From: Armatimonadota bacterium
GTDB lineage: Bacteria; Armatimonadota; HRBIN16
Direction of reading: 5' to 3'
DNA: 64,000 nt
NCBI GenBank assembly: GCA_963677485.1
Contig: OY781964.1
Coordinates: 640,001 to 704,000, forward strand
Position numbers and translations under genes: made by a program. The notes beneath the pieces are model-generated. The model made no database searches. It saw nothing but the letters and a program-made list of their open reading frames with translations, and was not told where the DNA came from. Positions 530-27,866 of the stretch are shown piece by piece (within the stretch, counting starts at the first letter, position 1; each line of letters opens with the position of its first letter).

Positions 530-2271
530 GGCCGTATCTAGAACTCAAGGAAACCAGCCGGTGGAAGTTCGACGAAGCGAAGGCCGACCGGATCTGCCGA
601 TGGATGGAAGGGCTTCGGCTGTGGGAGGGCGAATGGGCAGGTCGAAAGCTGAAGTTGATGGACTGGCAACGGCGGACGGTACGGGACATCTTCGGCTGGG
701 TAGACCGAAATACAGGGATGCGCCGATTCTGGTACGTGATCGTCGTTGTGCCACGCAAGAACGGCAAGACCACATTCAACGCCCCTATCGCCAGCTACAT
801 GCTGATGGCAGATGATGAGCCTGGCGCGCAGGTGTTTTCGGCGGCTGGCGACAAGGAACAAGCGAGTATCGTGTTCAAGTCAACGGTGAATATGCTTGAA
901 GCACAACCATCATTATGGAAAATGATCCGGCCAATTGAGAGTGACCGCACGTTGATCTACCCCAAGAAACACAGCAGCTTCATGGCATTGTCAAAGATTG
1001 CGGAGGCTAAGCTGGGTAAAAACCCGCACTTCGTGGTTTATGATGAACTGCTTGTTGCCAAGAACCGCGAGCTGTATACCGCACTGGAAACAGGCATGGC
1101 CGCCAGGCGTCAGCCCATGATGATGATGCTCACGACAGCAGGGTATGATCGGGCCACGCTGTGCTGGGAGCAGTATGACTATGGAAGGAAGGTACTGACT
1201 GGGGCGATCACGAACGAACGGTGGTATCCCGTGATCTACGAAGCGGAGGAGGATGCAGACTGGACATCTGAAGAGGTTTGGGCGGCGGCCAACCCGAGTT
1301 GGGGGGTGACGATTAACCGCGACTACATGGAACAGGCGTGTCAGAAGGCCATCGATACCCCCAGTAACCAGGCTGATTTCAAGAGATACCACCTCAATAT
1401 CTGGACGAACCAGGTGAACAGATGGCTGGACATGAGCCGTTGGAAGGCGTGCTGCAAAGAACCAATTGAGCCGCTTGATGGCCGGGTATGCTACGGCGGG
1501 CTCGACCTTTCGAGCACGATGGACTTGAGTTCGCTGTGCCTGGTATTTCCGAATACCGATGGTTCGTACGACGTGATCTGGCGGACCTGGACCCCGGAGG
1601 CCACGATGGTCGAACGCTCGCGGAGGGATGATGTGGACTATGCCGAGTGGGCGCGTGCGGGATGGCTTATTCCTACACCGGGCGAGCGTATAGACTACCG
1701 TTATATCCGTGAGGAGATCAAGGATATCGCTGCAAGATACAAGCTTGCGGAACTGGCATATGACCCGTGGGGAGCGCTGCATCTGGCGACGGAGCTTGAG
1801 GAGGAGGACAAGATCACGATGGTTCAGTGCAGGCAGGGATACATCACACTGTCGGCACCATCCAAGGAACTGGAAGCGGCGGTGGTTCTTGGGGCGGCCA
1901 CACCGGAGCAGGTTGAGGAATACCGCATGAAGTTCGAGGAAGATCAGGATCGCCGGGTGCTGGAAGCCCAGTTAGCTCTTGAGCAGATGAAGGAAGACGG
2001 GGTCAATACTAGTGCGATCAAGCCGTATGTGCGGCAGGAATGGAAATACAATGCGCTGCGTCACAACGGCGATCCTGTGGCGGGCTGGTGTGCAAACAAT
2101 GTGGCTGTCATCAAGGATGACGCGGACAACATCAAGCCGACGAAGTCGAAGTCGAACGGCAGGATAGACTGCATCGCCGCGTTGGTGACGGCACTCAGCA
2201 GGGCGATGCTTGGCGGAGGGCAACCGAGACGCAGCGTGTATGAAGACCGCGCGCCGTATGTTCCGGATTGA
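523..2271 (+). CDS. terL: Phage terminase large subunit
   Basis: Walker A VPRKNGKT, Walker B VVYDEL, TTAG coupling motif, GGLDLS nuclease Asp, RID C-terminal motif. Confidence 0.97.
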   Translation: MLRPYLELKETSRWKFDEAKADRICRWMEGLRLWEGEWAGRKLKLMDWQRRTVRDIFGWVDRNTGMRRFWYVIVVVPRKNGKTTFNAPIASYMLMADDEPGAQVFSAAGDKEQASIVFKSTVNMLEAQPSLWKMIRPIESDRTLIYPKKHSSFMALSKIAEAKLGKNPHFVVYDELLVAKNRELYTALETGMAARRQPMMMMLTTAGYDRATLCWEQYDYGRKVLTGAITNERWYPVIYEAEEDADWTSEEVWAAANPSWGVTINRDYMEQACQKAIDTPSNQADFKRYHLNIWTNQVNRWLDMSRWKACCKEPIEPLDGRVCYGGLDLSSTMDLSSLCLVFPNTDGSYDVIWRTWTPEATMVERSRRDDVDYAEWARAGWLIPTPGERIDYRYIREEIKDIAARYKLAELAYDPWGALHLATELEEEDKITMVQCRQGYITLSAPSKELEAAVVLGAATPEQVEEYRMKFEEDQDRRVLEAQLALEQMKEDGVNTSAIKPYVRQEWKYNALRHNGDPVAGWCANNVAVIKDDADNIKPTKSKSNGRIDCIAALVTALSRAMLGGGQPRRSVYEDRAPYVPD

Positions 2272-2351
2272 TCCGATTTGTTAGGAGTAGGTAGTAATAT
2301 TCCCGCATTGACAGATATAGATATTGGAGGTAGATTACTGATGTCACCACT

Positions 2352-3314
2352 ATGATGCTCATGGAGGGCATACTAATGCGGAATAAATTGTGTACCGTTG
2401 TATATGGGCTCTTGTTATGCAGTAGCTTAGCAATCGCAGACGATGTGTCGAAAACAACCATCGTTACCAAGGTGAACGCCAAGGATGGCGCTGAGATGGT
2501 ACTCATTCCAGCTGGTGAATTCCAGATGGGGATGTCCGAGGATGAAGTTGCAGCGTGGTTAAGAGACAATCCAGATTCAAACATCAAACGTACCGCGTTT
2601 GCACCTCAGATGCCAAAGCATAAAGTCAATGTAGATAGTTTTTATATGTATAGAACTGAGGTTACTGTCGCGCAGTATCGGAAGTTTTGTGAAGCCACGA
2701 ATCGGGCTATGCCGAAAGATCCGGATGATTGGAAATGGAAAGATGCCGGTCTGAATGTTCCTATCTCCAATGTTCGATGGGATGACGCGAAAGCCTATGC
2801 GGACTGGGCTGGTGTCATGCTTCCTACAGAGGCGCAATGGGAAAGAGCTGCACGTGGCGGGGATGATCGGCAATATTCATGGGGAAATACATGGCCACCA
2901 CCAGCCAAAGCGGGTAATCTGAGAGACCTTTCTCTACGCCACGTGATACCGAATTTAGAAGGTATTGTCACGGAAAAATATGATGATCGTTATGCGTATT
3001 TAGCACCTGTAGGGTCATTCAACGCGAACCCGTATGGCTTGTATGATATGACAGGCAATGTGTTGGAGTGGTGTGCAGACTGGTATAGTCCGAACTACTA
3101 CAGTAAGTCACCGACACGAAACCCGACTGGTCCCTCAAAACCCGATGACGATCGTAACTGCGTAATACGTGGAGGTAGCTATTACACAGTCCAATTCGGT
3201 ATCCGTGTATATGACAGAGACTTTGTTCCCAAAGATGGTGTAGGGTGGTCTCCAGCAGCACACGAAGATTTAGGATTCCGATGTGTGATGCCGGTGCCCC
3301 CCAAAAAGCTGTAA
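2352..3314 (+). CDS. Secreted formylglycine-generating-enzyme (SUMF1/CLec-fold) domain protein; moron; start probably 2376
   Basis: Signal peptide; MVLIPAGEFQMG, LPTEAQWERAARGG, NPYGLYDMTGNVLEWCADWY, RGGSY, GFRC; the FGE catalytic Cys pair is absent. Confidence 0.9.
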   Translation: MMLMEGILMRNKLCTVVYGLLLCSSLAIADDVSKTTIVTKVNAKDGAEMVLIPAGEFQMGMSEDEVAAWLRDNPDSNIKRTAFAPQMPKHKVNVDSFYMYRTEVTVAQYRKFCEATNRAMPKDPDDWKWKDAGLNVPISNVRWDDAKAYADWAGVMLPTEAQWERAARGGDDRQYSWGNTWPPPAKAGNLRDLSLRHVIPNLEGIVTEKYDDRYAYLAPVGSFNANPYGLYDMTGNVLEWCADWYSPNYYSKSPTRNPTGPSKPDDDRNCVIRGGSYYTVQFGIRVYDRDFVPKDGVGWSPAAHEDLGFRCVMPVPPKKL

Positions 3315-3354
3315 CAGCCCTCGTACTCCGACTGACATCCTCGGTCCACTGGAA

Positions 3355-3392
3355 CTGAACACAGCCTACTCCCTGCGGGTAGGCTGTTCATC
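3355..3392 (+). terminator. Hairpin after the FGE gene, putative terminator
   Basis: acagcctac-N9-gtaggctgt stem; weak U-tract. Confidence 0.45.
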
Positions 3393-3449
3393 ATTGGCTA
3401 GCGTTGAATTTACCAGGCTCATTCAAGTTACCAATCGAACCTTACGTCC

Positions 3450-3605
3450 GACCAGAACGACAACATCATGTATACGAAGGGCAAGAGCAACGGTCGCATC
3501 GACCTGATTTCGTCGCTTGTGATGGCGTTATGGCGGGCGATTGCGCACCGCGAGCCGAAGAAGCGCAGCGTGTATGAGACGCGTGCGCCGTATGTGCCGG
3601 ATTGA
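3450..3605 (+). pseudogene. Orphan diverged copy of the terL 3' end (51 codons + stop)
   Basis: DQNDNIMYTKGKSNGRIDLISSLVMALWRA...RSVYETRAPYVPD* aligns without gaps to terL 2116..2271, 32/51 aa identical by hand count. Confidence 0.93.
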
Positions 3606-3608
3606 GGT

Positions 3609-3833
3609 CTACGGGTCGTAGCCCTTATTTATATGTTTCATGATGAAGGTGTAGAGGCCCTTTCCGGATACCGCAAGAGCTTTCATGAATGCAACATTAC
3701 TCTGCCCTACTGACTCGTTCGTATATGTAAACCGGTGGCCATCGACAAACAAAACCTCGATACAGTCGGGGGTTATACCATACCACTCCACACGCGAAGT
3801 GCCCCGGCGGTTCGCGTATTTTTTCATATCCAT
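3609..3833 (-). CDS. KTSC-like small protein; moron
   Basis: S.V..Y......IEVLF.DG..FTY......M...A.SG.GL..FI pattern. Confidence 0.65.
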   Translation of the reverse strand: MDMKKYANRRGTSRVEWYGITPDCIEVLFVDGHRFTYTNESVGQSNVAFMKALAVSGKGLYTFIMKHINKGYDP

Positions 3834-4003
3834 ATCTATCTCCGAAAAAGGAATATACTCTACTTGACTTATGGTTAATTACCTATGGTTGGGAATCCTT
3901 CTTTTCGCTAGTAATCAAGCGATAGACTATGGTGTGTTGATATCTGTGAGAAAAGAAGGTATAAATAGGACAGTCTGATTACAATTGTATGTAATCGCTC
4001 TAT

Positions 4004-7000
4004 TTGCGACAAGGAATTAGCGATGGTTTCCGAACATCATCTGTATCGGGAACCCGAAGTAGTGACATAGTAGCTGGTGATCGCCATAGGGACAATATAC
4101 CCTACCAATCGCTCGGTCTAAAAGCTGTTATCGCAAGAAACGAGATGTTACTGATGAACGAAAACCCGAGTTCCGGTATACCCTCACAGCAAGCAGCCAC
4201 CTATCAATTAGGCGATCTAGTTCCTGCAGTTTTAAGCATGTTGAAGGAGTTGTTGAAAACATCAGAAATACAGCAACTCTTTGATGCTTTCTACAATCTA
4301 GTTGATATCCCTATTGCAGTCCTCGATATACATGGTGATGTTTTACTCTCATCAAAATGGAACCGCATCTGCACACAGTTCCACCGTACCCATCCTGTCA
4401 CTTGTGCGCATTGCGTAGAAAGTGACACAATGCTCGCTCAGCAGATTGATATTGGGCAGCCATACAAAATCTACCAATGTCTAAACGGTATGACAGAATG
4501 CTCGGCTCCAATCATTCTAGAAGGCCAGCACATCGCAAATCTGTTCGCAGGTCAGTTTTTGGTTAACAAACCAGACGAAATCATGTTCCACGATCAAGCC
4601 CTGCAGTATGGTTTTGATGTTGACGACTATCTCACCGCACTTCGCGAAGTACCGATAGTCGATGAAACCAGGATGCCAAAAATCATCGATTTATTAATCA
4701 AGATGACCCATGTGATTGCCCGTCTCAGTGTTGACCGTATACGTACCATGGAGGACCATAACAGGCAGGCACTTATTCTTGAAACTTTACCACTATCAGT
4801 ATTCTGGAAAGATGCTGATGGCACATATCTTGGTTGTAACACCCGATTTGCTACTGCTGTGGGTTTATCAACGCCCGATGAGATTGCGGGTAAGTCCGAT
4901 TATGATTTTGTTTCTGTATCGAGGGCTGATGGATTTCGGAAAGAAGACCAAGACATCATTGCTTCACATCAGCCAAAGCGTACGGTCCAGTCAGTCACGA
5001 AAAAAGATGGCTCACACATCACGGTCCAGATTGTTAAGACACCCATAGTCGGTGCTTTTGGATCATCAACGGGTGTGCTTGGGATATATGAGGACATCAC
5101 TAAACGTAAGGAAGCTGAAGACGCGTTACGTCAGAGTTATTCGCATTACCAGGCTGTGTTCAATAACGCGATTGAAGGTATATATGAAGCCACTATACAA
5201 GGCCAAGCATTGTCTGCAAACCCAGCGTTCGTACAGATGCTGGGGTATGATTCGGTAGAGGATGCACTCAGCAAGCTAGATGATGTTGCTTTGACGCTGT
5301 GGGCGGACCCTAACGAACGCGCGGTTGTGCTAAAACTGGTAGACATGAATGGATGGGTACGTGGATATGAATGTCAGTATCGGCGTAAGGACGGACGGCT
5401 GATATATATAGCACTCAATGCTACCGTCGTCAGAGTATCAGATGGTGAGGACTATTACCTTGCTTCTATCCAGGACATCACCGAAAGGAAGGAAGCTGAA
5501 GCCAAGTTGCGTCACAGCTATGTTCATTACCGGACGGTGTTCGAAAACGCGATTGAGGGTATCTATGAAGCTACATTACATGGTAAGGCATTATCAGCCA
5601 ACCCGGCATTTGTCGAAATGCTTGGGTATGATTCAGAAGAGGAAGTAGTCAGCATCCTTACAGACATCCCCCATCAGCTATGGGCCGATCCTGACGAACG
5701 CAGCAATGTTCTACACATGATCGATTTAAACGGATGTGTTAGGGGATACGAATGTGAATTCAAGCGTAGAGATGGAAGTATCATCCATGTGATGCTCAAT
5801 GCTACAGTCGTCCGAAGACCCGACCACAATGACTATTATTTAGCCTCTGTCCAAGATATCAGTGAAAAAAAACAAGCCGAGGTTAAGCGGCTTCAACTTG
5901 AAGACCAACTGCGATCGTCTCAGAAGTTGGAAGCCATTGGTAGACTCGCTGGAGGTGTCGCACATGACTTCAACAACCTTCTGTCAGTAATCTTAGGATA
6001 TACAGGCCTTACGATCGCCATGGTGGATGATGACGATCCGCTTAAAGAGAATATACAGGAAATCCAAAACGCCGCACAACACGCTGCGGCACTAACCCGT
6101 CAGCTTCTGGCCTTCGGCCGTAAACAGGTGCTGCAACCGGTGGTATTCGATCTGAATCAAATCATACATGGCATAAAGACTATATTCGATCGAACCATAG
6201 GTGAAACCATCGACCAGAAACTATTGTTATCGCCTCAAATCGGGTTGATCAAAGCTGACCCAAGCCAAATCGAGCAGGTGTTGATGAACTTGGTAGTCAA
6301 TGCTCGTGACGCCATGCCAGATGGTGGACAGATCACCATAGAGACATCGAAAATGGCGGTTACAGGTGACGAGATTGTGGTTGACACGGTACTCAGTCCT
6401 GGTATGTATGTAAAACTAGCCGTCAGTGACACGGGTATGGGCATGGACGCAAATACCAAAGCGAGGATATTCGATCCGTTTTATACAACCAAGGAATTTG
6501 GCAAGGGAACTGGCCTTGGCCTGTCCACAGTCTACGGTATCGTTAAACAAAGTGGAGGTGATATCTGGGTGGATTCCGAACCCGGGTATGGCTCCACTTT
6601 TAACGTCATCTTTCCATGTTTCAATGCAGTGAAGCCCGCAAGCATGAACCAGCCTCAGATATCTTTGATGGATACTACTGGGACTGAGACCATCATGGTG
6701 GTTGACAACGAAGAGTCACTACGTTTAGTCGCTACTAAAGTTTTGACTGATGCAGGATACACCGTGCTTTGTGCTGTAGGTGGTAACGAGGCGATAGATA
6801 TGGCAAGAAAGCATTCTGGCGATATCGATCTGCTTCTAGCCGATGTCATAATGCCTGGAATGGACGGCAGAGCCACCGCCAATGAGCTCATTCGAATTTG
6901 CCCATCAATAAAGGTGGTATTTATGTCAGGCCACACCCGCGATGAGATTGAACACCATGGTGTCATTTATGGAGATACGAACTATTTGGCCAAGCCTTTT

Positions 7001-7060
7001 TCAGCTGATGAACTGAAGGTCAAAATCCGTGAGATACTATCATTCCGACATCCTAGTTAA
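4004..7060 (+). CDS. Hybrid sensor histidine kinase (PocR sensor, 3 PAS, HisKA, HATPase, receiver); start probably ~4145; moron
   Basis: PocR motifs ICTQFHR..C.ESD and Y.C.NG...APII; duplicated PAS; AGGVAHDFNNLL, NARDAM, GKGTGLGL; receiver LLLADVIMPG..KPF. Confidence 0.95.
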   Translation: MRQGISDGFRTSSVSGTRSSDIVAGDRHRDNIPYQSLGLKAVIARNEMLLMNENPSSGIPSQQAATYQLGDLVPAVLSMLKELLKTSEIQQLFDAFYNLVDIPIAVLDIHGDVLLSSKWNRICTQFHRTHPVTCAHCVESDTMLAQQIDIGQPYKIYQCLNGMTECSAPIILEGQHIANLFAGQFLVNKPDEIMFHDQALQYGFDVDDYLTALREVPIVDETRMPKIIDLLIKMTHVIARLSVDRIRTMEDHNRQALILETLPLSVFWKDADGTYLGCNTRFATAVGLSTPDEIAGKSDYDFVSVSRADGFRKEDQDIIASHQPKRTVQSVTKKDGSHITVQIVKTPIVGAFGSSTGVLGIYEDITKRKEAEDALRQSYSHYQAVFNNAIEGIYEATIQGQALSANPAFVQMLGYDSVEDALSKLDDVALTLWADPNERAVVLKLVDMNGWVRGYECQYRRKDGRLIYIALNATVVRVSDGEDYYLASIQDITERKEAEAKLRHSYVHYRTVFENAIEGIYEATLHGKALSANPAFVEMLGYDSEEEVVSILTDIPHQLWADPDERSNVLHMIDLNGCVRGYECEFKRRDGSIIHVMLNATVVRRPDHNDYYLASVQDISEKKQAEVKRLQLEDQLRSSQKLEAIGRLAGGVAHDFNNLLSVILGYTGLTIAMVDDDDPLKENIQEIQNAAQHAAALTRQLLAFGRKQVLQPVVFDLNQIIHGIKTIFDRTIGETIDQKLLLSPQIGLIKADPSQIEQVLMNLVVNARDAMPDGGQITIETSKMAVTGDEIVVDTVLSPGMYVKLAVSDTGMGMDANTKARIFDPFYTTKEFGKGTGLGLSTVYGIVKQSGGDIWVDSEPGYGSTFNVIFPCFNAVKPASMNQPQISLMDTTGTETIMVVDNEESLRLVATKVLTDAGYTVLCAVGGNEAIDMARKHSGDIDLLLADVIMPGMDGRATANELIRICPSIKVVFMSGHTRDEIEHHGVIYGDTNYLAKPFSADELKVKIREILSFRHPS

Positions 7061-7095
7061 CGCATTCTGACCTATATAGCCATCCTCGTTTGACG

Positions 7096-7141
7096 AAATG
7101 GGAAGTGGGGGCTGTCAACTGACAGCTCCCACTTCCCATTT
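7096..7141. terminator. Long near-perfect hairpin between kinase and portal genes
   Basis: aaatgggaagtgggggctgtca-ac-tgacagctcccacttcccattt, 22-nt arms with one G-T pair. Confidence 0.6.
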
Positions 7142-7173
7142 TAGATTGTTTGCCCCCTAGTATATGGAGGGCT

Positions 7174-8373
7174 GTGAATTTGAGATGGCCGTGGCAGCGC
7201 AAGGAAAAGAGAATTGCTGATCCGTGGGTGATCGGCGGGGTCGACAAGTATGGTCGGCCGACGAATGCGGCGATACAGATCGCTGCATTGCATCGGTGCG
7301 TGGCGGTGATCAGCGAGAGCATCGCGACGCTGCCGATCCATGTATACCAGATGACCAAAGATGGCAGAGTGCCGAAGCCAAGCCACCCCCTTCAATCCCT
7401 CCTGTATTCTACGCCGAACCGGCGGATGATCCCGTGCGTATTCTGGCAGTCGGTGGTCGAGAACACCGTGCTGCTGGGCAACGGGTATGTGGAGATCGCA
7501 CGCGATGAGAACACCCGGCCGGTGGAGTTGTGGCCGTTGTGCCCTGCCGAGGTTTACGCCGACGCCGAGTTGGACGGCACCCCGAACTACACCGTGACGC
7601 GGGCGGGCACGGCGCATAAACTGGCAGACAGCGATGTGATGCACATCCCCGGCCAGGGCTATGACGGTCTGCGCGGGAGCTCGCTGCTGGAGAGGTTCCG
7701 GACGGTGTTCGGGATCACCATCTCGGCGGACACACTGGCTGAGAGTTACTTTCGGCAGGGGGCCAAGCCGTCTGGGGTGTTGAGCACTCCCGACGAGATG
7801 AGTGAAGACGCCGAGAAGAACCTGATCGACGCGTGGCGACGGCTGTATGAGGGGGCCTCGAACGCTGGGCGGATCATGCTGCTTCAGCAGGGGGTGAAGT
7901 TCGATGCGCTGTCAATCAGCTTCGCGGACAGCGAGTTTCTGAAGAACCGGGAGTTTCAAGTGGCGGAGGTCTGCCGCGTGTTCGGTGTTCCGATGCATAT
8001 GGTCATGGCACCCGGAGGGACATATGCCAGCGACGAGGCGCGGGCTAGGGAGTTCTACTCGTTGACGTTGCAGCCCTGGATTGTGCGGCTGGAGCAATCG
8101 ATCAGCCGGAGCCTGTTGACGCCATGGGAGCGTGGGCGGATATTCGTGAAGTTTGAAGTCGACGGCCTTTTACGAGGCGACTTGGACAAGCGATATGCAT
8201 CATACGCCATCGCCAAGCAGAACGGCTGGCTATGTGTGAATGAGATACGACGGTATGAGGATTTGCCCCCGATAGAGGGTGGCGATGAATACTACGTGCC
8301 GCTCAATATGGTGCCGATCGGCCAGGCTGCGGATCAGGTGGGCAACGGCGAGCCGGGGAGTGTGAGGAAGTGA
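7174..8373 (+). CDS. Phage portal protein (HK97 family)
   Basis: CVAVISESIATLP, GNGYVEI, EVCRVFGVP, NEIR..EDLPPIEGGD; GTG start after ggagg. Confidence 0.96.
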   Translation: MNLRWPWQRKEKRIADPWVIGGVDKYGRPTNAAIQIAALHRCVAVISESIATLPIHVYQMTKDGRVPKPSHPLQSLLYSTPNRRMIPCVFWQSVVENTVLLGNGYVEIARDENTRPVELWPLCPAEVYADAELDGTPNYTVTRAGTAHKLADSDVMHIPGQGYDGLRGSSLLERFRTVFGITISADTLAESYFRQGAKPSGVLSTPDEMSEDAEKNLIDAWRRLYEGASNAGRIMLLQQGVKFDALSISFADSEFLKNREFQVAEVCRVFGVPMHMVMAPGGTYASDEARAREFYSLTLQPWIVRLEQSISRSLLTPWERGRIFVKFEVDGLLRGDLDKRYASYAIAKQNGWLCVNEIRRYEDLPPIEGGDEYYVPLNMVPIGQAADQVGNGEPGSVRK

Positions 8374-8978
8374 GCGACAACCTACAGTTTCGGTGGATGC
8401 AGCACAACGCGGAGCTGCGAATGTCTGGCGAGGAGAGCCGCACTATCAACGGGTATGCGGCGGTGTTCAACTCGGAGACGATGATTTTCAGAGACACCTA
8501 TGAGGTGATCCGTCCGGAGGCGTTCCGGACCACCAACATGGATAAAGTGGTGTGCCTGTTCAACCACAGCTATGACCAGATGGTGGCGAGTGTGGCGGGC
8601 GGCACGCTGCGGCTGTCGACAGATGACCACGGTCTGCGGTTTGAGGCCGATGTGGCCCGCACGATGATAGGCGACCAGGTGATTGAGCTGGTGCGACGGG
8701 GTGACCTGCAGGGCTGCAGCTTCGCGTTCTGGGTGACGAAGGATGCCTGGACGGACCGCGGGGACGGGGTGATGCTGCGGGAGCTGCTAGATATCCGGGA
8801 GATCGATGACGTTGGTCCGGTGGTGCGACCGGCGTATGTAGCCACAAGTGTGGCTATGAGGAGCTATTACGAAGCTCGGTGCAAGCGACCAGAGGGTAAA
8901 CCTGCTGAGGAAGTGAATGCGCAGCCTACCCTGAACAACGACTGGATGATGCTGAAGAAGCTAATGGAGGGACGATGA
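8370..8978 (+). CDS. Prohead protease (HK97 family)
   Basis: GYAAVFNS, LFNH, D.HGLRFEA, RGDLQGCSFAF, PAY. Confidence 0.95.
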   Translation: MSDNLQFRWMQHNAELRMSGEESRTINGYAAVFNSETMIFRDTYEVIRPEAFRTTNMDKVVCLFNHSYDQMVASVAGGTLRLSTDDHGLRFEADVARTMIGDQVIELVRRGDLQGCSFAFWVTKDAWTDRGDGVMLRELLDIREIDDVGPVVRPAYVATSVAMRSYYEARCKRPEGKPAEEVNAQPTLNNDWMMLKKLMEGR

Positions 8979-10165: not shown

Positions 10166-10203
10166 GAGGAGGCTCAGCCTCATTGAGGCTTAGCCTCGCT
10201 TTC

Positions 10204-10227: not shown

Positions 10228-10249
10228 CGACCGAGACAGATAAGGAGTA

Positions 10250-10684
10250 ATGATGGCAGACAACTATATCGGGCGGGTATCCATTGACAATGTGCCGGAC
10301 AATCCGGTGCTGGTGACGCAGGGCATACGGCTACCGAATGCGCTGTCTGCCATCATAGAAGCCGACACGAGCCAGAGCTCCGCTGTGCATATACCGGACG
10401 GCTGGCGTATCGATGAGCTGGGATTTAGCCTGGGTTGGACTGGTAAAATCTCTTTCCAGGACTCCATAGATGACGGGGTGACCTGGCGCGACATGCTTGA
10501 GAACGGCGAGAGCATCGCCGAGACCCCTGTGGGGCTGTGTGCACTCCCGCTCACCGCCGACATGAGCCTGCGTGTGTCGAAGCACCTGGTGCGGTTTCAG
10601 AGCGGCGTACGGGGCGACCTTGTGGCACAGACCACCGCACAGACCACCGCACAGACCATAGATATCTCGCTGGTAAGCATGTAG
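10250..10684 (+). CDS. Hypothetical virion protein (beta-rich)
   Basis: Good RBS aaggag; F..SIDDGVTW motif; lies in structural operon. Confidence 0.7.
   Translation: MMADNYIGRVSIDNVPDNPVLVTQGIRLPNALSAIIEADTSQSSAVHIPDGWRIDELGFSLGWTGKISFQDSIDDGVTWRDMLENGESIAETPVGLCALPLTADMSLRVSKHLVRFQSGVRGDLVAQTTAQTTAQTIDISLVSM
10625..10658 (+). repeat. 12-bp in-frame tandem repeat gcacagaccacc x~2.8 (AQTT)
   Basis: Read directly from sequence. Confidence 0.9.
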
Positions 10685-10686
10685 CC

Positions 10687-13823: not shown

Positions 13824-13835
13824 GGAGAGCGCACT

Positions 13836-17074: not shown

Positions 17075-17077
17075 CGA

Positions 17078-20450: not shown

Positions 20451-20896
20451 TAGCCAGCCGTAAACGCCCAGGGGAGCAAGTGACCTGGGCGGACTATAAT
20501 GCGCTGCTCGACATGCTGGAGAGCCTGCTTGTGGTGCCGGGTAACGGCATTCAGGTGAGCCGCAGCCCTCGCGGTCAGATGGTCAGTGCCACCGCCCCAT
20601 CGAGGGGTGGCTCCGGGGTGAGTGTCCCAGAGGCGGACGGACCGATCGTAGAGCTCGGTCATGTTCAGGGAACCAGGGACACCGACACATGGACCGCCAA
20701 CCAGGGGCACGGCGTGCGAGTATTCCTGGCCACCGACATTCAGTATTCCGAGGAGACTGGTAAGTTCGAGTTCAGACCGCGTCCGGCGGAGATTACCGAA
20801 TCAGGACGTTTCCGGTTTATCGGTGCTGAAGATGACCCGGCAGTGTTGATCACCACCACTGAGGAGTGTAAGTCGCAGCCTGAGACGCCAGCATGA
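20447..20896 (+). CDS. Putative tail protein
   Basis: ATGA-coupled; PGEQVTWADYNAL and GNGI.V motifs seen in phage tail proteins. Confidence 0.55.
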   Translation: MIASRKRPGEQVTWADYNALLDMLESLLVVPGNGIQVSRSPRGQMVSATAPSRGGSGVSVPEADGPIVELGHVQGTRDTDTWTANQGHGVRVFLATDIQYSEETGKFEFRPRPAEITESGRFRFIGAEDDPAVLITTTEECKSQPETPA

Positions 20897-23721
20897 TAAA
20901 GATCGATGAACAGACCGTCACCTGGACCATTCAGTTCTACCACGCGGCGAAGATCGAGGTCTACAGGGATAACTTCATGCCGTTCCTGCACTCCCGCATC
21001 ACCGCCAATGGGTCGCTGTCGGCCACCATTCCGCTTTCTGTGGGTGCTTTTTCGGTTGGTGCTATCACGGCGGGAGCATACCCGGATGTGAGCTGGCCAC
21101 ATACTGACCAGTTGCCATTCGACTACACCCTGACCTACCCGAGCGGACAACCAGCACCGGCGGAGTGGGCCACGATGAGCATCCGGTTCGGGCTCCCGGA
21201 GGGTGTCCATACCCAGCCCCACGCAGGCTCGCTGACGTTCAGGGCGCCCTGTGATGTAATGGCGGACATGCTGACCATGGGCGAGGGTGACGGTGCGGGT
21301 TTTGTGGGCTTCCATCACCGGGGCTTTCAGAGGGACACCCCAGACCGCACCAAGTGCAGGCTGTGGCTTCGTCTGCGGGAACTGGCCACCTGGACGCTTG
21401 TCACCAACATCGGCACCTATACCGGCACCTGCGGATCGGTGGGAGCGGATCTACCCAACGAGCTGCACGCCAGTGCGACGGTGACCGCGATCGCAGGCAC
21501 ACAGACCGCCGAGGGGCGGGTGAATATCATCTGCTCGAACGGCAGTTACCGCTGCGACGGTGCATCACCTACCTGGAGTTATAGCGGCGGAACCTGCAGT
21601 GGGGAGCTGGGTGACGGCCACCTTGTGGGCAGAGCCACACCGACCAGCGGTGGCGCAAGTATGACCACAGCCATGGCGGGCGGGTGGCACCTGAGCCGTG
21701 AGGCGTCCATCACCTGTGCGGTGCTCAACCCGTCCGGAGGCGGGATACCTTCGGAGCTTGCGGTCAGTAGACACGGCAACGACACCGCCCTACCCATCGT
21801 CACAGCCACTGACGGCTACTATGAGGAGGGCATCACGCAGCGGATGTGGTTCTGGAGTTTCAACGCTAGCAGCGGGACGGGTAGTTTTTCGGACGGCGGC
21901 ACCTGGTCGAACTGGGGAGATCTGTCGGTCGGGCTGAACCCGGTATGGAGCCTGGCTAACGAATACCACGATCTACCGGAGGATTGGAGCGACTACCTAC
22001 CTTACCGCACCTGGCAGGATAACCGGATGCTGATGCACCTGTGGGCGGTCGATGGCCCGACGCTTTCGCACGCCGCCATGAGCTCGCTTGGCTTAGGCTG
22101 GGCGGAGGGCGGCTATACTCTGGCATCTGGTGCCTGGGTCTCTGGGGGTGCGCTCACCTGCGGGCGCTGGACGGTCATACATGGCAGCCTTGATCCGGAC
22201 GGGTTGGTGGCTCGCATCACGCCGGACACCGGGACGGTGGCCATGACCTTGCGCCGCACGCTGGAGTGGGACACCGAGCAGCTTGGCGAGAACCCAAGCC
22301 GTCCCCCACGGCCCACATTCGCAGGATACCGCTATCTGCGGATATGCTTAAGGCGTGACCGCACACCCCAGCCGCTCGATACAGTAACGGTGCGGATCAA
22401 GCAGGATAACCTGGCCGCACTCTACCCGGACCCCACCACGATGACATGGGAGAACCCGAGCCTGGCGGTGAAGACATGGACCACGAAGGTGAAGGCGGAT
22501 GGCACGATAGAGATAGACCTGGCCAGGCCGGACATCACCGGGCTTGTGTCAGAAGGAGGGAACCCGCCACCGACCGGCAACCATGGCGAGCTCGCGCGGC
22601 CAAACACCCTGAGCCGGTGGCCACAGCCGGTTTTGGACGGCACGCTCAGCGGTGTAACCCTTCCGGAGTGGTTGGAGGTTGAGGTACCGACCACCGACGG
22701 TGACGACTGGATACTGGGCAGCGTGGAGCTGTTTCGAAAGTCGGAGCCGCTAGTGTGGCTGCTCCCCCCACTCAACCAGTGGATTCGCGAGGAGCGGTAT
22801 GACCTGCTCAACGAAGAGGACACCACCCAGCGTAAGCACTGGCGAAGGCGTCTGCTGCTTGGTGTGTGCGATGGTCTGCCGAACTTGGAGGGGTTTGATA
22901 TAGTCCGCACCTCGTCGCACCTGGTCAGCGAGGAGCTCGGCGAATTTGATATCTTCGCCTGGGAGCTTAAAAGCGTGGCCGGTGTGGCGGTGCAGGTGGT
23001 CGAGGAGCATGAGTTTAACCTCTGGCAGTTTGGTGTTCCGGACGTTCCAGTGGGGGTTCTGCGACGCTGGCCAGGTTGGAGCGTGAGCATCCCGACCCCA
23101 GCGGCGGGCAGCGTATATGAGTGGGTGTTGGCTGGCTCCGGCTGCCGGTGGGGTGGCCACGGCGTGATCTGGACCGCCAGCCCACAGGTGCAGTCATGTT
23201 TGGGCCTTGGCGGTACGAAGGTGCAGTCACTGGTGGACGCGATAGACTGGTTCGCAGGGGTGCATGACCCGTTCAACCTGGGTGATGACGACCTGGTGCT
23301 GCGTGTGGCCACGGTGCTGCATGGCAGTGCTATCGGGGCAGGGCTTGCGAATGACACGGTGGAGTTGAAGGCGGGTGAGACGCTGGTGCAGAGTGTGGCC
23401 ACCGGCACCAACGGCGCCCTGCTGGCCATGAACCCGGGCGGTAAGCACTACCTGGACCACTCGCTGTTACGTGACGGCCAGGAGCTGGTGAGTTGGACCG
23501 GTGAGGGCTGTAGTTGGGATTTCCGGCCGTCGCTTACAGCTTCGCAGGTCTACCCGTGTCTTGAGGCTCCGCTCTGGTGGCACAGCCGCGGGCTGCATGT
23601 GGCGCACTGGGCGAAGTGGTTCGGTCCGCTGGTGCTGCGGCGCAACAAGCAGGGTAAGCTGCTCTGCCAGAAGCGCAGCCTACCCGGCGGGGGTAGGTGC
23701 GTCAGGTGCCGTCAGGGGTAG
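20893..23721 (+). CDS. Large hypothetical tail/virion protein (942 aa)
   Basis: ATGA-coupled last gene of late operon; Gly/Thr/Trp-rich. Confidence 0.6.
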   Translation: MIKIDEQTVTWTIQFYHAAKIEVYRDNFMPFLHSRITANGSLSATIPLSVGAFSVGAITAGAYPDVSWPHTDQLPFDYTLTYPSGQPAPAEWATMSIRFGLPEGVHTQPHAGSLTFRAPCDVMADMLTMGEGDGAGFVGFHHRGFQRDTPDRTKCRLWLRLRELATWTLVTNIGTYTGTCGSVGADLPNELHASATVTAIAGTQTAEGRVNIICSNGSYRCDGASPTWSYSGGTCSGELGDGHLVGRATPTSGGASMTTAMAGGWHLSREASITCAVLNPSGGGIPSELAVSRHGNDTALPIVTATDGYYEEGITQRMWFWSFNASSGTGSFSDGGTWSNWGDLSVGLNPVWSLANEYHDLPEDWSDYLPYRTWQDNRMLMHLWAVDGPTLSHAAMSSLGLGWAEGGYTLASGAWVSGGALTCGRWTVIHGSLDPDGLVARITPDTGTVAMTLRRTLEWDTEQLGENPSRPPRPTFAGYRYLRICLRRDRTPQPLDTVTVRIKQDNLAALYPDPTTMTWENPSLAVKTWTTKVKADGTIEIDLARPDITGLVSEGGNPPPTGNHGELARPNTLSRWPQPVLDGTLSGVTLPEWLEVEVPTTDGDDWILGSVELFRKSEPLVWLLPPLNQWIREERYDLLNEEDTTQRKHWRRRLLLGVCDGLPNLEGFDIVRTSSHLVSEELGEFDIFAWELKSVAGVAVQVVEEHEFNLWQFGVPDVPVGVLRRWPGWSVSIPTPAAGSVYEWVLAGSGCRWGGHGVIWTASPQVQSCLGLGGTKVQSLVDAIDWFAGVHDPFNLGDDDLVLRVATVLHGSAIGAGLANDTVELKAGETLVQSVATGTNGALLAMNPGGKHYLDHSLLRDGQELVSWTGEGCSWDFRPSLTASQVYPCLEAPLWWHSRGLHVAHWAKWFGPLVLRRNKQGKLLCQKRSLPGGGRCVRCRQG

Positions 23722-23750
23722 TTGACAAGTAGAACTATATAGGCTATAGT
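23722..23750 (+). promoter_or_regulatory. Near-consensus sigma70 promoter TTGACA-N17-TATAGT
   Basis: TTGACA 23722-27, TATAGT 23745-50. Confidence 0.7.
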
Positions 23751-23756
23751 TTATTC

Positions 23757-23835
23757 AGTGTGCAAGCGTGATACTCCAATCACACGCGTGCTACAGAGGC
23801 CGGTAACTGATATGTCAGTCACCGGCCTCGAGTTG
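23757..23835 (+). ncRNA. Candidate two-hairpin small RNA
   Basis: Follows the promoter; hairpins at 23766-23787 and 23796-23829; no credible + strand gene follows. Confidence 0.35.
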
Positions 23836-23850
23836 ATTTCAGGGGCGGTG

Positions 23851-24372
23851 CTAGGCGAATGAGCGTGATGCACTATTTCCAGTAAGGTTAGATATCATCT
23901 TAGTCAGGGTGGCTATTTCACTTACTATTATTCGCTGTTTAAGTGTCTGCCTTCTTTCTTCTGATGGGTTTTCAATCTTGAATGAAATCCAGACTTTCAC
24001 AAACTCCGTAATGATGTATATTGACCCAAGCGCAGTGACAAGTAATAATGCCCTGGTCATTAGGTCCCCTTTGAGAATCAACCTAGTCAATCTATCCTTG
24101 CCAAGTTTTTCAGTGATGGTAGTGAGAAGCAAGAATGTAAATTGTTTGCTGTTTTTGCATTTTAACATAACGGAGCTGAACTGTTTCATGGCTAAGTCAA
24201 ACTCGCGTTCATCTTTTCCTGTGCTTGCATGACCAAGACCCAGCATACCGACGAACGCCCATTTTTGTAAAATCAACCATAAAGCCACTACTAATTTGAT
24301 CGCCAAAATAGGGATACCTATGATCAATACGAGAGTAGCAATAACTATCATGAACGTAGTGGTTCCTATCAT
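23851..24372 (-). CDS. Hypothetical membrane protein (moron)
   Basis: Hydrophobic segments; AT-rich; coupled to upstream gene. Confidence 0.65.
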   Translation of the reverse strand: MIGTTTFMIVIATLVLIIGIPILAIKLVVALWLILQKWAFVGMLGLGHASTGKDEREFDLAMKQFSSVMLKCKNSKQFTFLLLTTITEKLGKDRLTRLILKGDLMTRALLLVTALGSIYIITEFVKVWISFKIENPSEERRQTLKQRIIVSEIATLTKMISNLTGNSASRSFA

Positions 24373-24770
24373 TTCTGACCTCCCTTGTTCATGGATACAT
24401 TGTTATCCGCTTTTGTTATGATCGCCTTGTTGACTACTGATGAAGCAATATAGATTGCTCCCAGTAATATTATGACTACTATAGTCGAGTAAATACAAAA
24501 CGCGGCCGCTTGTAACGGGGTTAACCTTTTAGCTATAGAGGTCTCTAGTTCAAAGAATTTATCAACAATATGAATAGGAACCTTCATATCATTGGCTAAT
24601 GCTAATGTAATGATGACTGCAGCAGCAACCACTTTGGAAAGGAAATAGAACCCCTGCTTGTATATTTTGACCGTGTTATCTGATTTTACTTTTTCGAGCT
24701 CTGTTTTCGTTAATGGAGTATTTATCGGATGGTATTTGTTTCGCCACTGATCTTCTGTATGCTTAGCCAA
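24369..24770 (-). CDS. Hypothetical 2-TM membrane protein (moron)
   Basis: Two hydrophobic helices; AT-rich. Confidence 0.65.
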   Translation of the reverse strand: MAKHTEDQWRNKYHPINTPLTKTELEKVKSDNTVKIYKQGFYFLSKVVAAAVIITLALANDMKVPIHIVDKFFELETSIAKRLTPLQAAAFCIYSTIVVIILLGAIYIASSVVNKAIITKADNNVSMNKGGQK

Positions 24771-24870
24771 TGTGTATCACCATAGCGTTAATGGCCATAT
24801 CTGTTATACAATCTCCAATCATGATAGTTAGTTACTTGCTATCTGGGGCATCTAGGCACGGCGCACCTGT

Positions 24871-25451
24871 CTATTGCCCACTTCCCCAGCTGCTAGATGG
24901 TTGAGGTTGGGCCGGTTGCTCTACAGGTGCGGGCTGCGGCTGGGCTTGTTGCTGCTGCGCTTCAAGCAGGCGTTGCGCATTCGCGGCCTCTGCTTCGGCT
25001 TCACGTTGGGCTTGTTCGGCATCGGCCAATCCTTTGTTCGTTTGTTCGTCAATCTGCTTTAACGAGTTGGTGATCTGATCCGTCACCTGCCGTATAACTT
25101 TGGCGTCCTCAGTATCCCATGACACCATCTTCCACTTGTTGGCACCCTCACACTTGATGACCATCTCAAAGCGGGTGCGGACAGGCACTCCCATGCCATT
25201 CATCGAATCAACATAACCCTTTACGTAGTAGGTGGTATCTTTGCGGTTTTCAATTTCGACGCCACGTTCGCCCAGTTGGGATATATAGCTGTGGTAGGGC
25301 TGAGCAGCACATCGTTGACCATTACCTGGGTTTGCTTCCAGATGTCTTTGTTTGACACGTTTTTGGTGTTGAACGCGGTGAGACCATTGTAAGTGACGAC
25401 CATGAATACGACCACGATAACGAGGCCGATGATGGGCATGATGAATCTCAT
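24871..25451 (-). pseudogene. Membrane-anchored protein gene with a 1-nt frameshift near 25272
   Basis: N-part MRFIMP..LLSPTTAIYPNW continues in another frame as GERGVEI..YYVKGYVDSMNGMG..RTRF; one extra G rejoins them. Confidence 0.75.
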
Positions 25452-25521
25452 ATTCTCGCTCCGTTAAAGGTGTAGATCGTATCGCCGTTACCTTCGCCAC
25501 GCTGCAGAGGGAATTCTTCTT

Positions 25522-25587
25522 TTACAACCCGTCATTACCGACGCTAGTCGAAACGCCCACGCCGATCACCGAGTTGCCGTCGGCCAT
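25522..25587 (-). pseudogene. Orphan diverged copy of the cI 3' end
   Basis: ADGNSVIGVGVSTSVGNDGL* versus CI AEGCRVLGVACGLTRGKGGL*; gapless, 8/20 aa and about 35/60 nt identical by hand count. Confidence 0.7.
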
Positions 25588-25593
25588 AGTAGC

Positions 25594-26151
25594 TTATGGT
25601 TCAAGTATCTTCTTTTTTGCTATCTCGAACTCATCACGAGTCAAGAAGCCTTGTTGCACCATGTCTACCAGACGTTGAAGCTCATCACCGATATTTGGTT
25701 GGAGAACCGGCTCGGTATCCTGCTGACCGGACACTATACGGCTGGTATTTATTCGTTCGCGAATCATGCTGGCAACTACTGGCATAACTGCTTTATGTGG
25801 TGTTGAAAATGTCAATGCGTTTTCTGATTGTGCCATCTGAATTGATTCGGTACTACTCAATTCCCTACTACCAGGTACTGTTATCTGGATATGACCACCG
25901 AGTAACGATACCCTCAGGTCAACTGATGTTATGTGTTCGAACTGGAATGATTTCAGGGATGCCCCAAATGCACCTCCAGTGGAACCAAAACCGGACTTAA
26001 TGATGATGACCCGTTTATCTGTGACGACCAATGCTTGGCCTGGTAGAGGTTGTAACATCACATCGATTCTCTCATCACCTGGCACATTATCATTGAATGC
26101 CTGTAAAATCTTTCCTGTTAACTTTTCATGGAGTTTTACTTCATTTGCCAT
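25594..26151 (-). CDS. Bacterial PH-domain protein with C-terminal SHOCT domain
   Basis: LVVTDKRVII, ITSVD, ENALTF; DELQRL..MVQQGFLTRDEFEIAKKKIL. Confidence 0.85.
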   Translation of the reverse strand: MANEVKLHEKLTGKILQAFNDNVPGDERIDVMLQPLPGQALVVTDKRVIIIKSGFGSTGGAFGASLKSFQFEHITSVDLRVSLLGGHIQITVPGSRELSSTESIQMAQSENALTFSTPHKAVMPVVASMIRERINTSRIVSGQQDTEPVLQPNIGDELQRLVDMVQQGFLTRDEFEIAKKKILEP

Positions 26152-26188
26152 GATCCATACATCCTTTCGTATTGCATATATACTACCT

Positions 26189-26449
26189 CTACGGGCTGCA
26201 AATGCTGCACGCACAATACCCGTTCTTGATGGCCGATGCTTTGCTGATGACAATTTGGCTCTGTCTTAAGTAACGACCCCCATCCTTGTGGTGGAACACT
26301 CCTGTGCGAGTGATATACACCGTCACCGTCTGCTTCTTCAGCAAGGCTGTTGGTGTATTCATGCTCGTCTGGGCATTGGGACATGGAGTGAACTGAGCAA
26401 TGCTCAGCACCATCACAAGAACGGCGACTAGACGGGTAACGTGTTTCAT
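26189..26449 (-). CDS. Small exported protein with degenerate Ada-like metal-binding motif
   Basis: Signal peptide; VYITRTG..HH...YL..S..I....A...GY.ACSICSP. Confidence 0.75.
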   Translation of the reverse strand: MKHVTRLVAVLVMVLSIAQFTPCPNAQTSMNTPTALLKKQTVTVYITRTGVFHHKDGGRYLRQSQIVISKASAIKNGYCACSICSP

Positions 26450-26592
26450 GACAGCACTCCTCGGAAAAAGATTGTCGGTGAACTACCCAGTGACTTGGAT
26501 TTCACCATTGGACAAGCGGATTCCTTCTATATAATGAACGAAGCGGAATATCCACAATAAATCAGGTTCACATACAGACTGGCGATGAAAAG

Positions 26593-27108
26593 TCAATGGA
26601 AAGCATCTCTACTGATACGATAAAATACGTCCGTACGTCCGTGAAATTCATGTAAGCCAATGCAAGTCATCCCAATATTCTCAAGGGCTTTCATAGAAGC
26701 CTTGTTATCGGGGTTTGCCATACCGTAGATGCAAGTTATGTCAGTAGCTTCAAAAGCTCCACGGATAGCAGCCCTTCCGACTTCAGTTGCGTAGCCATTT
26801 CCCCAAAAAGGTACGCCGAACTGCCACTCCAACTCTGGTTGCTTGGGTAGATATCGGTTAAGGCCTGTAATGCCAACCAATTGCTTAGTTTCTTTAAGAA
26901 TACAGGCTCCATGAAACCAATCAAGCGTTTGGAAGTTACTGTCCAGCATGAATTGTATATATTTTTCTACATGCTCTAGAGACCAAGGATTGTTTCCTGT
27001 GTATGTATGGACTCTACTGTCAGACATTATGTCTAAAAGTGCTGGAATGTCATCTCGAACCCACTGCCTCACAATCAGTCTATCAGTTTCAAAATATCGA
27101 TGCGGCAT
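26593..27108 (-). CDS. GNAT (RimJ/RimL-type) acetyltransferase
   Basis: ETDRLIVR, FWGNGYATE, N.AS.KALE.IGM. Confidence 0.92.
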   Translation of the reverse strand: MPHRYFETDRLIVRQWVRDDIPALLDIMSDSRVHTYTGNNPWSLEHVEKYIQFMLDSNFQTLDWFHGACILKETKQLVGITGLNRYLPKQPELEWQFGVPFWGNGYATEVGRAAIRGAFEATDITCIYGMANPDNKASMKALENIGMTCIGLHEFHGRTDVFYRISRDAFH

Positions 27109-27209
27109 GGCAGTAACCTTCTCTCTGTCTAAAGACGATCTTCTAAGGTTCGGCTTCAAAACAGGCATTCCTCATGTCCGAAACTACTCAGTACCAGCCC
27201 ACCGCCACC

Positions 27210-27866
27210 CTACAACCCGCCCTTACCGCGGGTAAGCCCGCACGCTACACCTAGCACTCTGCAGCCTTCTGCAGGGAAGTCGGGGTAACCAGATTCTGGG
27301 TTGTCTGGCGCGAAGTAACGGCGACCGCGGTTCATCACCGAGCGTTTGATCATGCGTTCTCCAGTCTCTAATACCTCTATTAGCGCAACTTCGCCCGTAC
27401 CACAAAACGGCTGCCGCTTTATGCCAACATAGTCATCGAAACAAACACGCGGTTCCATACAGTTACCCACTATATGCACAACGAAATCAGCATTCAGTTG
27501 CTTGGGAAACAACACATAGCCATCGGGATCGTCAGAGTCGGCAAAGCGTCCTTTGGATGGATCAGCCGGTACATCCCAGTATGGAAGCTTTACCAGGTGT
27601 GGGTTGCCGAGGGCATATAGCTCATTTCTACTCTCGAAGGCTTCGCATGCCTGCTCGAGAGTAATGTCGCCAGCAAAGTAACCGAGGTCAACCCCTATGG
27701 TTTTGGCAAATATTGCTAATAGGTCAACAGTTGGGATACTTCGACCACTAACCCAATTGTTGATAGTGCCATAGTTGATGCCACTGGCTTGAGATGCTGC
27801 CCTTATCGACCTAAAGCCTCGATACACCGTGGCTTTACGTATTTTATCTGCTAAATTTTCACTCAT
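27210..27866 (-). CDS. cI: CI-like repressor (HTH + S24 domain) with atypical cleavage residues
   Basis: Cro/C1 HTH; V.GNCMEP, IKR, PDNP..YP, RVLGV; divergent from cro. Confidence 0.9.
   Translation of the reverse strand: MSENLADKIRKATVYRGFRSIRAASQASGINYGTINNWVSGRSIPTVDLLAIFAKTIGVDLGYFAGDITLEQACEAFESRNELYALGNPHLVKLPYWDVPADPSKGRFADSDDPDGYVLFPKQLNADFVVHIVGNCMEPRVCFDDYVGIKRQPFCGTGEVALIEVLETGERMIKRSVMNRGRRYFAPDNPESGYPDFPAEGCRVLGVACGLTRGKGGL

Follow-up and report, generated by a model that had tools for sequence, protein, structure and literature searches.

Two accessory-gene hotspots of an integrated phage each hold, trapped between two sets of cargo genes, a displaced 3' end of the gene (the anchor) that borders the hotspot. 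The phage, here named P1, is HK97-like and temperate and makes up the left half of the window, i.e., the whole 64,000-nucleotide stretch analysed (Armatimonadota bacterium, assembly GCA_963677485.1, contig OY781964.1, positions 640,001 to 704,000), in which it extends from about -3800 to 31400, limits that were set by comparison with a sister prophage, P2. Hotspot 1 lies between terL and portal and has terL as its anchor, and hotspot 2 lies between the last tail gene and cI and has the cI-type repressor gene as its anchor. The best reading of these displaced ends, called orphans or stumps below, is that related phages recombined out of register, by an illegitimate or homology-facilitated route, and that deletions then trimmed the stumps; to this we assign a probability of about 0.7. 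The finding is a clean and replicated example of a known process and not an integron-like system, and its biology is expected rather than surprising.

Both hotspots stand out as stretches of low G+C content (2272-7128, from terL to portal, and 23722-27209, from the last tail gene to cI), with cargo at 0.43-0.49 versus 0.54-0.63 in the phage core and 0.544 in the whole genome (Table 1). In hotspot 1, intact terL is followed by an FGE-sulfatase-family gene, with a promoter-like site before it (TTGACA-17-TAGATT at 2308-2336; overall, promoter-like counts are not above those of shuffles) and a stem-loop after it (about 3357-3390), and then by the terL orphan, which is uninterrupted by stop or frameshift, retains residues characteristic of TerL proteins, and aligns with TerL at 62.7% identity over 51 residues (E 3.1e-10, tblastn against the whole 5.2-Mb genome) and with terL DNA over 42 nt at 86%. 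Beyond it lie a 74-residue gene and a hybrid sensor kinase gene that is specific to P1 relative to P2 and has a G+C content of 0.45-0.48. An earlier note, made from the sequence alone, had described this layout, and its FGE gene, diverged terL end and kinase are all borne out; the gene that it called 'KTSC' is on the minus strand, and the KTSC family of Pfam does not match it at E<=1.

Hotspot 2 shows the same layout. The GNAT, bPH/SHOCT and orphan cI elements of the earlier note are present, while Pfam gives no support to the 86-residue open reading frame (ORF) that it had taken for Ada-like; the gene distal to the scar, which it had described as frameshifted, indeed reads as one gene in two frames. 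Against the end of the window's own cI, the orphan reaches a local score of 26 (null 18.9 +/- 2.1), a value attained by 2/300 dinucleotide shuffles, so that this alignment would not pass the shuffle test that had been proposed for it. Against the intact cI end of P2 it reaches 57, with a null maximum of 28 and 0/300 shuffles at that score; the match spans window positions 25523-25569, in frame and with the stop at the same place, and is also given by blastn (85% over 48 nt, E 2.9e-6). Judged by sequence comparison, the case for the cI orphan is marginal against its own cI and decisive against the P2 cI end, and both orphans are, on this evidence, displaced 3' ends of other alleles and not chance matches, in agreement with what the earlier note had supposed.

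The genome carries three related HK97-like prophages, P1 in the window, P2 and P3, which have both hotspots in common, the latter two being defined by two additional full-length copies each of TerL and CI (amino acid identity to P1 of 90% for terL and 63% for cI in P2, and of 79% and 65% in P3). P1 matches P2 at 94.5% along 16.6 kb of portal-to-tail DNA and at 98.9% along 3.7 kb that lie upstream of the small terminase gene, and the homology of the two picks up again at 7129, at the right edge of hotspot 1; their cargo is unrelated at both hotspots. In P3, terL and portal are spaced by 169 nt with no cargo gene between them, which shows the unfilled state of hotspot 1. The terL hotspot of P2 holds, in this order, a TIR-like gene, a TerL fragment, a homologue of the 74-residue gene and a pentapeptide-repeat ion-channel gene, and its cI hotspot holds a 174-residue membrane protein gene, a CI fragment and a three-gene block on the opposite strand. 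Behind cI, P3 carries a SieB-like gene (PF14163, 2.4e-11) and then a zinc-ribbon/DUF4352 gene, cargo in which tblastn found no CI fragment. The terL orphan and the 74-residue gene form a module common to P1 and P2 (79% over 384 nt), the two 74-residue proteins, likewise placed after the terL orphans, being 81% identical; both orphans join this same downstream module at their stop codon, and their left breakpoints differ. Cargo differs upstream of the module (FGE in P1, the TIR-like gene in P2) and also on its portal side.

Two groups of P2 cargo genes are candidate defence genes in their own right, namely the TIR-like gene (L033:6889-7857, minus strand; 322 residues, PADLOC PDLC00733 1.4e-9) and the three-gene block (L032:2811-6869, minus strand), which consists of a HATPase_c_3 gene, an ORF without family match and a gene with a weak Radical_SAM match that falls under Pfam's cutoff; no complete known defence system matched the block. 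Prophage P3 (G000:C1:1470501-1493500) contains tandem arrays of a 7-nt AGGAGNC-type motif and of its complement, which pair into long intergenic hairpins; 9/41 forward and 4/32 reverse arrays of the genome lie in P3 and none in P1 or P2. Its terL-portal gap (P3 3163-3331) carries a core repeat of about 34 nt that is found at 99 places in the genome (>=20 nt).

When the six regions between anchors were scanned by sensitive tblastn with 12 anchor proteins (TerL, portal, last tail protein and CI from each of P1-P3), an anchor fragment was detected in four of the five cargo-bearing hotspot loci, the cI side of P3 being the one without, and no portal or tail-protein fragment in any of the five cargo blocks (E<0.1). 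The type of scar described for the two hotspots of P1 is thus seen in its sister prophage P2 as well. All stumps have an open frame up to the native stop, and their extent is different at every locus: at terL the breakpoints lie at -48 and -64 codons, with an additional internal piece of residues 294-327, and at cI they lie at about -16 to -21 codons in P1 and enclose an internal piece of residues 179-201 in P2. There is one scar per locus, or possibly two fused ones at P2 terL, where the two TerL pieces (residues 294-327 and 519-582) are read in different frames and have the 10-mer GGCGGGCTGG in common where they overlap. Intact terL has GGCGGGCTGG, or a form with one mismatch, at exactly those two positions (the YGGL and VAGW codons), and the fusion has all the marks of a microhomology-mediated join, which would reflect either a 0.58-kb deletion within a displaced terL copy or an out-of-register crossover of two terL alleles. 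The fused pieces imply that an illegitimate process acted at the hotspot and that the displaced copy was formerly longer.

Over the last 192 nt of terL, the P1 orphan is 56-61% identical to all other copies, with 56% to its own gene, and over -144..-48 it is 57-60% identical to all three intact alleles at the nucleotide level; its last 48 nt, in contrast, are 94% identical to intact P2 terL versus 79% to its own gene. The P2 orphan (192 nt) is 93% identical to intact P1 terL versus 91% to its own. The P1 orphan peptide aligns with the C-termini of 87/150 TerL cluster representatives at E<=0.01, which marks it as a genuine divergent allele rather than a product of random decay. These affinities bear on the alternative that the phage duplicated its own terL and cI ends locally and in tandem when cargo was inserted, and that the copies have since diverged into the orphans. 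The orphans lie 1.3-1.7 kb downstream of similar genes, with like orientation and stop position, as such a duplication would leave them; the duplication is nevertheless very improbable, since the P1 terL orphan combines 56% identity to its own gene over 192 nt with an open frame and TerL-family residues, since the cI orphan is far closer to the P2 allele and the P2 terL orphan slightly closer to P1 terL, and since neutral decay of a self-copy would not converge on other alleles.

The anchors themselves are mosaic. In a sliding comparison of P1 and P2, terL identity stays at 60-79% as far as about 1250, rises to 91-100% in 1254-2150 and drops to 85% in the final ~120 nt, which shows that crossovers do take place inside the anchor gene; it is in these two switches and in the flanking core genes, which are 94-99% identical, that the homology-joined side of the exchange is seen. 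The cI repressor of P1 is a different allele from those of P2 and P3 along its whole length (63-66% amino acid identity). The exchange of a 'new 3' end' that the earlier note had proposed therefore does not describe the cI side, where the incoming unit is an immunity module with attached cargo.

Positions 2000-7400 of the window are present at 0.98-1.00 of sampled words in five sequencing runs of two studies, and at 0.18 in a digester metagenome, X6; no RNA run was among the matches listed. Contigs without a single difference cover 2125-3595 (run X1), 2125-3589 (X3) and 2125-3652 (X4), as well as 3631-7173 (X1 and X3) and 3631-6714 (X4), and they bridge the terL-FGE, FGE-orphan and kinase-portal junctions in three runs of the two studies each; the junction of the orphan with the small gene is bridged by the X4 contig only, 47 nt past the stop. 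The source sample may be among the best-matching runs, which makes this support less than fully independent. It bears directly on whether the fragments are false ones, made by the mis-joining of similar prophages in assembly. P1 and P2, 94-99% identical over long stretches, are in a situation prone to assembler error, but these exact contigs bridge the terL-side junctions and the orphans are diverged alleles, not copies of another site in the genome; an artefact of this kind is barely conceivable, and the check for a chimera that the earlier note had called for comes out against one on the terL side. Three joints in the runs of the strain (2225>3560, 3607>2078 and 3834>7129) were considered as cassette-loss variants and rejected, being best read as P2 aligned on P1, with depths matching other P2-type contigs (80% threshold).

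A relative of P1, identical to it at about 86-96%, is present in the metagenome X6. In one contig of this relative the terL body leads into a last 41 nt of the orphan type; a second contig opens with 34 nt of such an end and passes through a 30-nt spacer resembling window positions 2272-2302 into the FGE gene, and others carry the small gene, the kinase and portal. The proximal terL cargo of P1, which has no counterpart in P2 or P3, is thus present in this relative, which most simply has an intact terL with an orphan-type end followed by FGE; the 34-41 nt stretch would then be repeated in it, and for this reason the contig graph cannot prove the order. Orphan-type ends on intact genes, which the earlier note had expected in relatives, are accordingly found in P2 cI and in the last 41-48 nt of P2 and X6 terL.

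Other relatives are scarce. None of the 17 other genomes of the host's family (which in the collection is also its order and its class) has a TerL match, blastn of window positions 1-8000 gave no match in the phage collection, and neither the FGE protein nor the 74-residue protein has relatives in IMG/VR. Distant TerL loci were found in genome contigs (n=1, at 31%), in IMG/VR (n=18, at 27-31%) and in metagenome contigs (n=6, at 23-43%). The orphan TerL peptide was compared with 5.8 billion proteins (longer proteins only), and 0/9 candidates scored. In these searches no intact terL had the divergent middle part of the orphan (the best TerL representative is 54% identical), and none was followed by the KTSC-like gene or the kinase, so that the relative predicted on these points by the earlier note was not found. 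A second TerL C-terminal fragment was seen downstream of 0/20 distant TerL loci with at least 3.7 kb of downstream DNA (three of 23 loci, with too little of it, were left out), and such scars are therefore not a general trait of this terminase family. Matches in one IMG/VR locus, L022, were tried as a second fragment and turned out to be the continuation of its own interrupted TerL frame; in L022 and in another IMG/VR locus, L024, the interruption could stem from a frameshift, from an intron or intein, or from an error in sequencing. This phage group is nearly unsampled in the collections searched, so that all comparison draws on lineages that are not independent, namely the three prophages of a single genome and one fragmentary relative from a metagenome.

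The orphans can be accounted for as trapped 3' ends of terL or cI alleles from an earlier version of the phage or from a recombination partner. Two related, collinear phage genomes would recombine slightly out of register: in one exchange, an illegitimate or microhomology join would link DNA past the cargo of one phage to a point inside the anchor gene of the other, and in a second, ordinary homologous recombination in shared core genes would complete the product. Such a product would have a whole anchor with its cargo, then the anchor stump of the other phage with its cargo, the two cargo sets adding up, and the stump would be trimmed by later deletions. It would be viable as one anchor is whole and the stump silent, and the stumps seen are silent 3' ends of the upstream gene only, the kind of fragment that should do a phage the least harm. 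The order of events, the donors and the enzymes of recombination are all inferred. The lineage-specific cargo between intact terL and the common module of P1 and P2 fits with new cargo joining at the anchor, as the earlier note had proposed; P1 and P2 also differ on the portal side of that module, however, and for this reason its further claim that distal cargo is the older is not established.

Could the same layout come from a dedicated site-specific cassette system, integron-like or a 3'-end-targeting island, that inserts 'new 3' end + cargo' at defined sites in terL and cI with a recombinase encoded elsewhere in phage or host? One layout recurs at two hotspots and in two prophages, the new cargo starts exactly past the anchor stop in P1 and most simply also in the X6 relative, and the phage has a tyrosine integrase, placed at the prophage end, 3 kb beyond cI. 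A site-specific 3'-end insertion would be expected to show the same breakpoint and a core repeat at each insertion, and neither is seen: the breakpoints are different at each locus, which rules out a fixed site, and no recurrent direct or inverted repeat flanks the cassettes besides the anchor ends, the inverted repeats seen being two terminator-like hairpins and scattered short pairs. The P2 fragments are, moreover, internal pieces cut on both sides, with one junction in a microhomology internal to terL, and cI differs as a whole gene and not at its end alone. As the earlier note had stated, neither cargo block encodes a recombinase; no recombinase family was matched among the cargo ORFs of both blocks in Pfam or PHROGs, three ORFs being without any family match, and no match pointing to an IntI-type integrase was found within or next to either block. 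A cassette-borne recombinase and attC-like repeats are ruled out by this evidence, and a dedicated system as a whole is highly unlikely. In integron arrays, cassettes are stacked beside a fixed point by IntI, with attI and attC sites. The cargo here likewise lies beside a fixed point, with the newest possibly nearest the anchor, but there is no IntI, no attI/attC-like repeat bounding the cassettes and no fixed junction, and each locus has at most one stump, or two fused. The ordered, integron-like array that the earlier note had envisaged has to be given up.

Several points weigh against out-of-register recombination as set out above. No donor phage was found, so that how many events there were, and of which polarity, is inferred from the three prophages and X6; the read support covers the terL-side junctions only and not those on the cI side. 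Random out-of-register crossovers should also leave 5' stumps of portal or 3' stumps of the tail gene, of which there are 0 versus the 4 anchor stumps seen, a bias that is suggestive and, with four scars, not significant, and that selection against truncated portal products would explain. The two fused TerL pieces of P2 diverge very unequally (50% versus 95% amino acid identity), which requires that the displaced allele was mosaic, that two events followed each other or that the 3' piece underwent gene conversion. Later gene conversion, and not origin, could also be why the P2 orphan has such high identity to intact terL, and the last 48 nt of the P1 orphan to P2 terL; more generally, gene conversion between stumps and intact genes may blur the allele affinities. 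Finally, no single-strand-annealing recombinase was found among the 13 early-region ORFs of P1 that were scanned, 6/13 of which have no family match.

A further possibility is that the stumps are kept for a function, either as internal homology pads by which co-resident prophages would swap single cassettes or, if translated, as short C-terminal TerL or CI peptides that would interfere with the packaging or the repressor of a competitor. Their open frames up to the native stop, the 91-93% identity of the 192-nt P2 stump to intact terL ends, which is sufficient for recombination, the position that the FGE cassette of X6 would have between near-identical direct repeats of at least 34-41 nt, and an orphan-type terL end in X6, as stump and gene could produce by exchange or conversion, all speak in its favour. 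Open frames of 16-64 codons are, on the other hand, expected in recent relics, no Shine-Dalgarno-like sequence was seen before the ATG of either P1 stump (the stump ORFs from that ATG being of 45 residues at 3468-3605 in the terL orphan and of 21 residues at 25525-25587 in the cI orphan), the extents differ, and the P2 cI piece lacks both ends, so that we consider retention for function unlikely. Somewhat less doubtful, though still speculative, is that the trapped stumps provide a second internal homology to the terL and cI of relatives and let co-resident or incoming phages gain, lose or swap cassettes by homologous recombination; if true, this would amount to a recombinase-free, self-propagating cassette array in which each out-of-register event makes the next landing pad. 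In a bolder variant, the stump peptides may act as decoys against the terminase or repressor of a competitor.

Out-of-register recombination, the reading preferred here, has several known counterparts. Morons and their accretion in lambdoid and HK97-like phages were reportedly described by Hendrix, Juhala and colleagues, with illegitimate mosaic junctions sieved by selection. As in that case, genes of foreign composition lie between core genes that are contiguous in a relative (P3), with a promoter-like site before the FGE gene, hairpins after, and junctions at or near gene ends. Unlike with morons, the junction here is not cleanly intergenic, an anchor stump being trapped between two cargo sets, and the stump recurs at two hotspots in two sibling prophages, so that events can be partly ordered. 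Homology-facilitated illegitimate recombination, which de Vries and Wackernagel are said to have described in natural transformation of bacteria with linear DNA, has one homologous anchor and one illegitimate end-join, which gives exactly this layout, and is matched here by the crossovers internal to terL and by one junction in a 10-nt microhomology; here, unlike in transformation, the exchange was probably between phage genomes that were replicating or resident together.

Relaxed homologous recombination between temperate phages and defective prophages, mediated by Rad52-like recombinases, is treated by De Paepe et al. 2014 (PMC3945230), who, in the portions of the paper available, weigh limited-homology against illegitimate recombination and favour the former, with illegitimate events being rare. 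Exchange between diverged co-resident prophages and mosaics inside genes are, in those portions (PMC3945230), common to that system and the present one, whereas each join of stump to cargo here needs at least one non-homologous join. The scan of the early region of P1 revealed no Rad52-like recombinase, with the same six of 13 ORFs lacking a family match. Rousset et al. 2022 reportedly described variable hotspots of defence and accessory genes in P2-like phages and P4 satellites. For these P2/P4 hotspots, a 2026 Nucleic Acids Res study (PMC13586616) puts homologous recombination in flanking genes and illegitimate recombination as alternatives and leaves the mechanism open, mentioning, in the part of its text available, only unrecognisable intergenic remnants. 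The sites described in that part (PMC13586616) are, like those here, fixed between conserved genes and subject to rapid cargo turnover; they differ in phage lineage and in location, and the remnants here are recognisable as anchor-gene ends. A preprint on hotspot annotation (10.1101/2024.10.15.618418) names non-homologous recombination as one cause of hotspots.

As far as these partly available sources go (PMC13586616, PMC3945230), the mechanism of cargo exchange at phage accessory and defence hotspots is still open, and this is where anchor-gene stumps could be of use. Each is a physical record of a single exchange, giving at least one non-homologous join, its site and the displaced allele, and four such records come from three sibling prophages of one genome. 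Such scars could serve as markers of hotspot turnover, and a systematic scan for anchor ends in hotspot catalogues could measure the share and polarity of illegitimate versus homologous exchange. No description of anchor-gene stumps as markers was found in the literature outside supplements and most subscription papers.

Table 1. Features of prophage P1 in the window, and anchor stumps of P2.
Feature	Position	Strand	Remarks
Small terminase gene	80-529		
terL	523-2271	+	intact anchor of hotspot 1; Pfam TerL_ATPase 2.4e-28, TerL_nuclease 3.4e-45
Proximal cargo of hotspot 1	2272-3449	+	G+C content 0.48-0.49
FGE-sulfatase-family gene	2352-3314	+	Pfam PF03781 9.5e-52
Orphan terL 3' end (P1 terL stump)	3450-3605	+	TerL residues 532-582; about 48-51 codons, in frame, stop at terL's stop position
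74-residue gene	3609-3833	-	convergent with terL; phrog_17428 1.5e-14, a PHROG of unknown function
Hybrid sensor kinase gene	4004-7060	+	distal cargo, 1018 residues; PocR, 3 PAS, HisKA, HATPase_c, receiver
Hairpin, 20-22 bp	7095-7142	+	right edge of hotspot 1
portal	7150-8373	+	right-hand core gene of hotspot 1; Pfam Phage_portal 1.8e-94
Last tail gene	20893-23721	+	942 residues; core border of hotspot 2
Two membrane-protein genes	23851-24372, 24369-24770	-	distal cargo
Gene reading in two frames	24871-25451	-	shift near 25265-25275
Orphan cI 3' end (P1 cI stump)	25522-25587	-	22-codon ORF closing at the stop, P2/P3 allele type; last ~16-21 codons of cI
bPH/SHOCT gene	25594-26253	-	proximal cargo
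86-residue ORF	26189-26449	-	proximal cargo
GNAT acetyltransferase gene	26593-27168	-	proximal cargo
cI-type repressor gene	27210-27866	-	intact anchor of hotspot 2; HTH_3 and Peptidase_S24
Cro-like gene	27962-28174		
Excisionase-like gene	29967-30314		
Tyrosine integrase gene	30199-31374		
P2 terL stump			TerL residues 519-582 at 95% amino acid identity, plus residues 294-327 at 47-50%, E 1e-4
P2 cI stump			CI residues 179-201, 87%, E 8e-10; both gene ends missing

The head and tail genes of P1 run on to 23721, and directly upstream of the window lie replication genes, a DNA methyltransferase gene and an HNH endonuclease gene. The closest paralogues of the kinase of hotspot 1 in the host genome are no more than 40% identical to it over its C-terminal half, and a direct repeat of 183 nt inside its gene (5091-5273 and 5472-5654, 77%) reflects duplicated PAS units. 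Just beyond the integrase end of the prophage, 31570-35927 looks like a broken two-gene module of an ATPase and a DUF4276 protein: an IS21-family element (IstA-like 32688-34247, IstB 34241-35008) interrupts an AAA_21/AAA_15 ATPase gene, of which the N-terminal part lies at 35052-35927 and the C-terminal part at 32217-32531, adjoined by the DUF4276 gene at 31570-32220. In the head region, an ORF of 743 residues (10537-12768) has three diverged internal repeats with a spacing of 627 and 708 nt, which are probably repeated domains of a structural or decoration protein.

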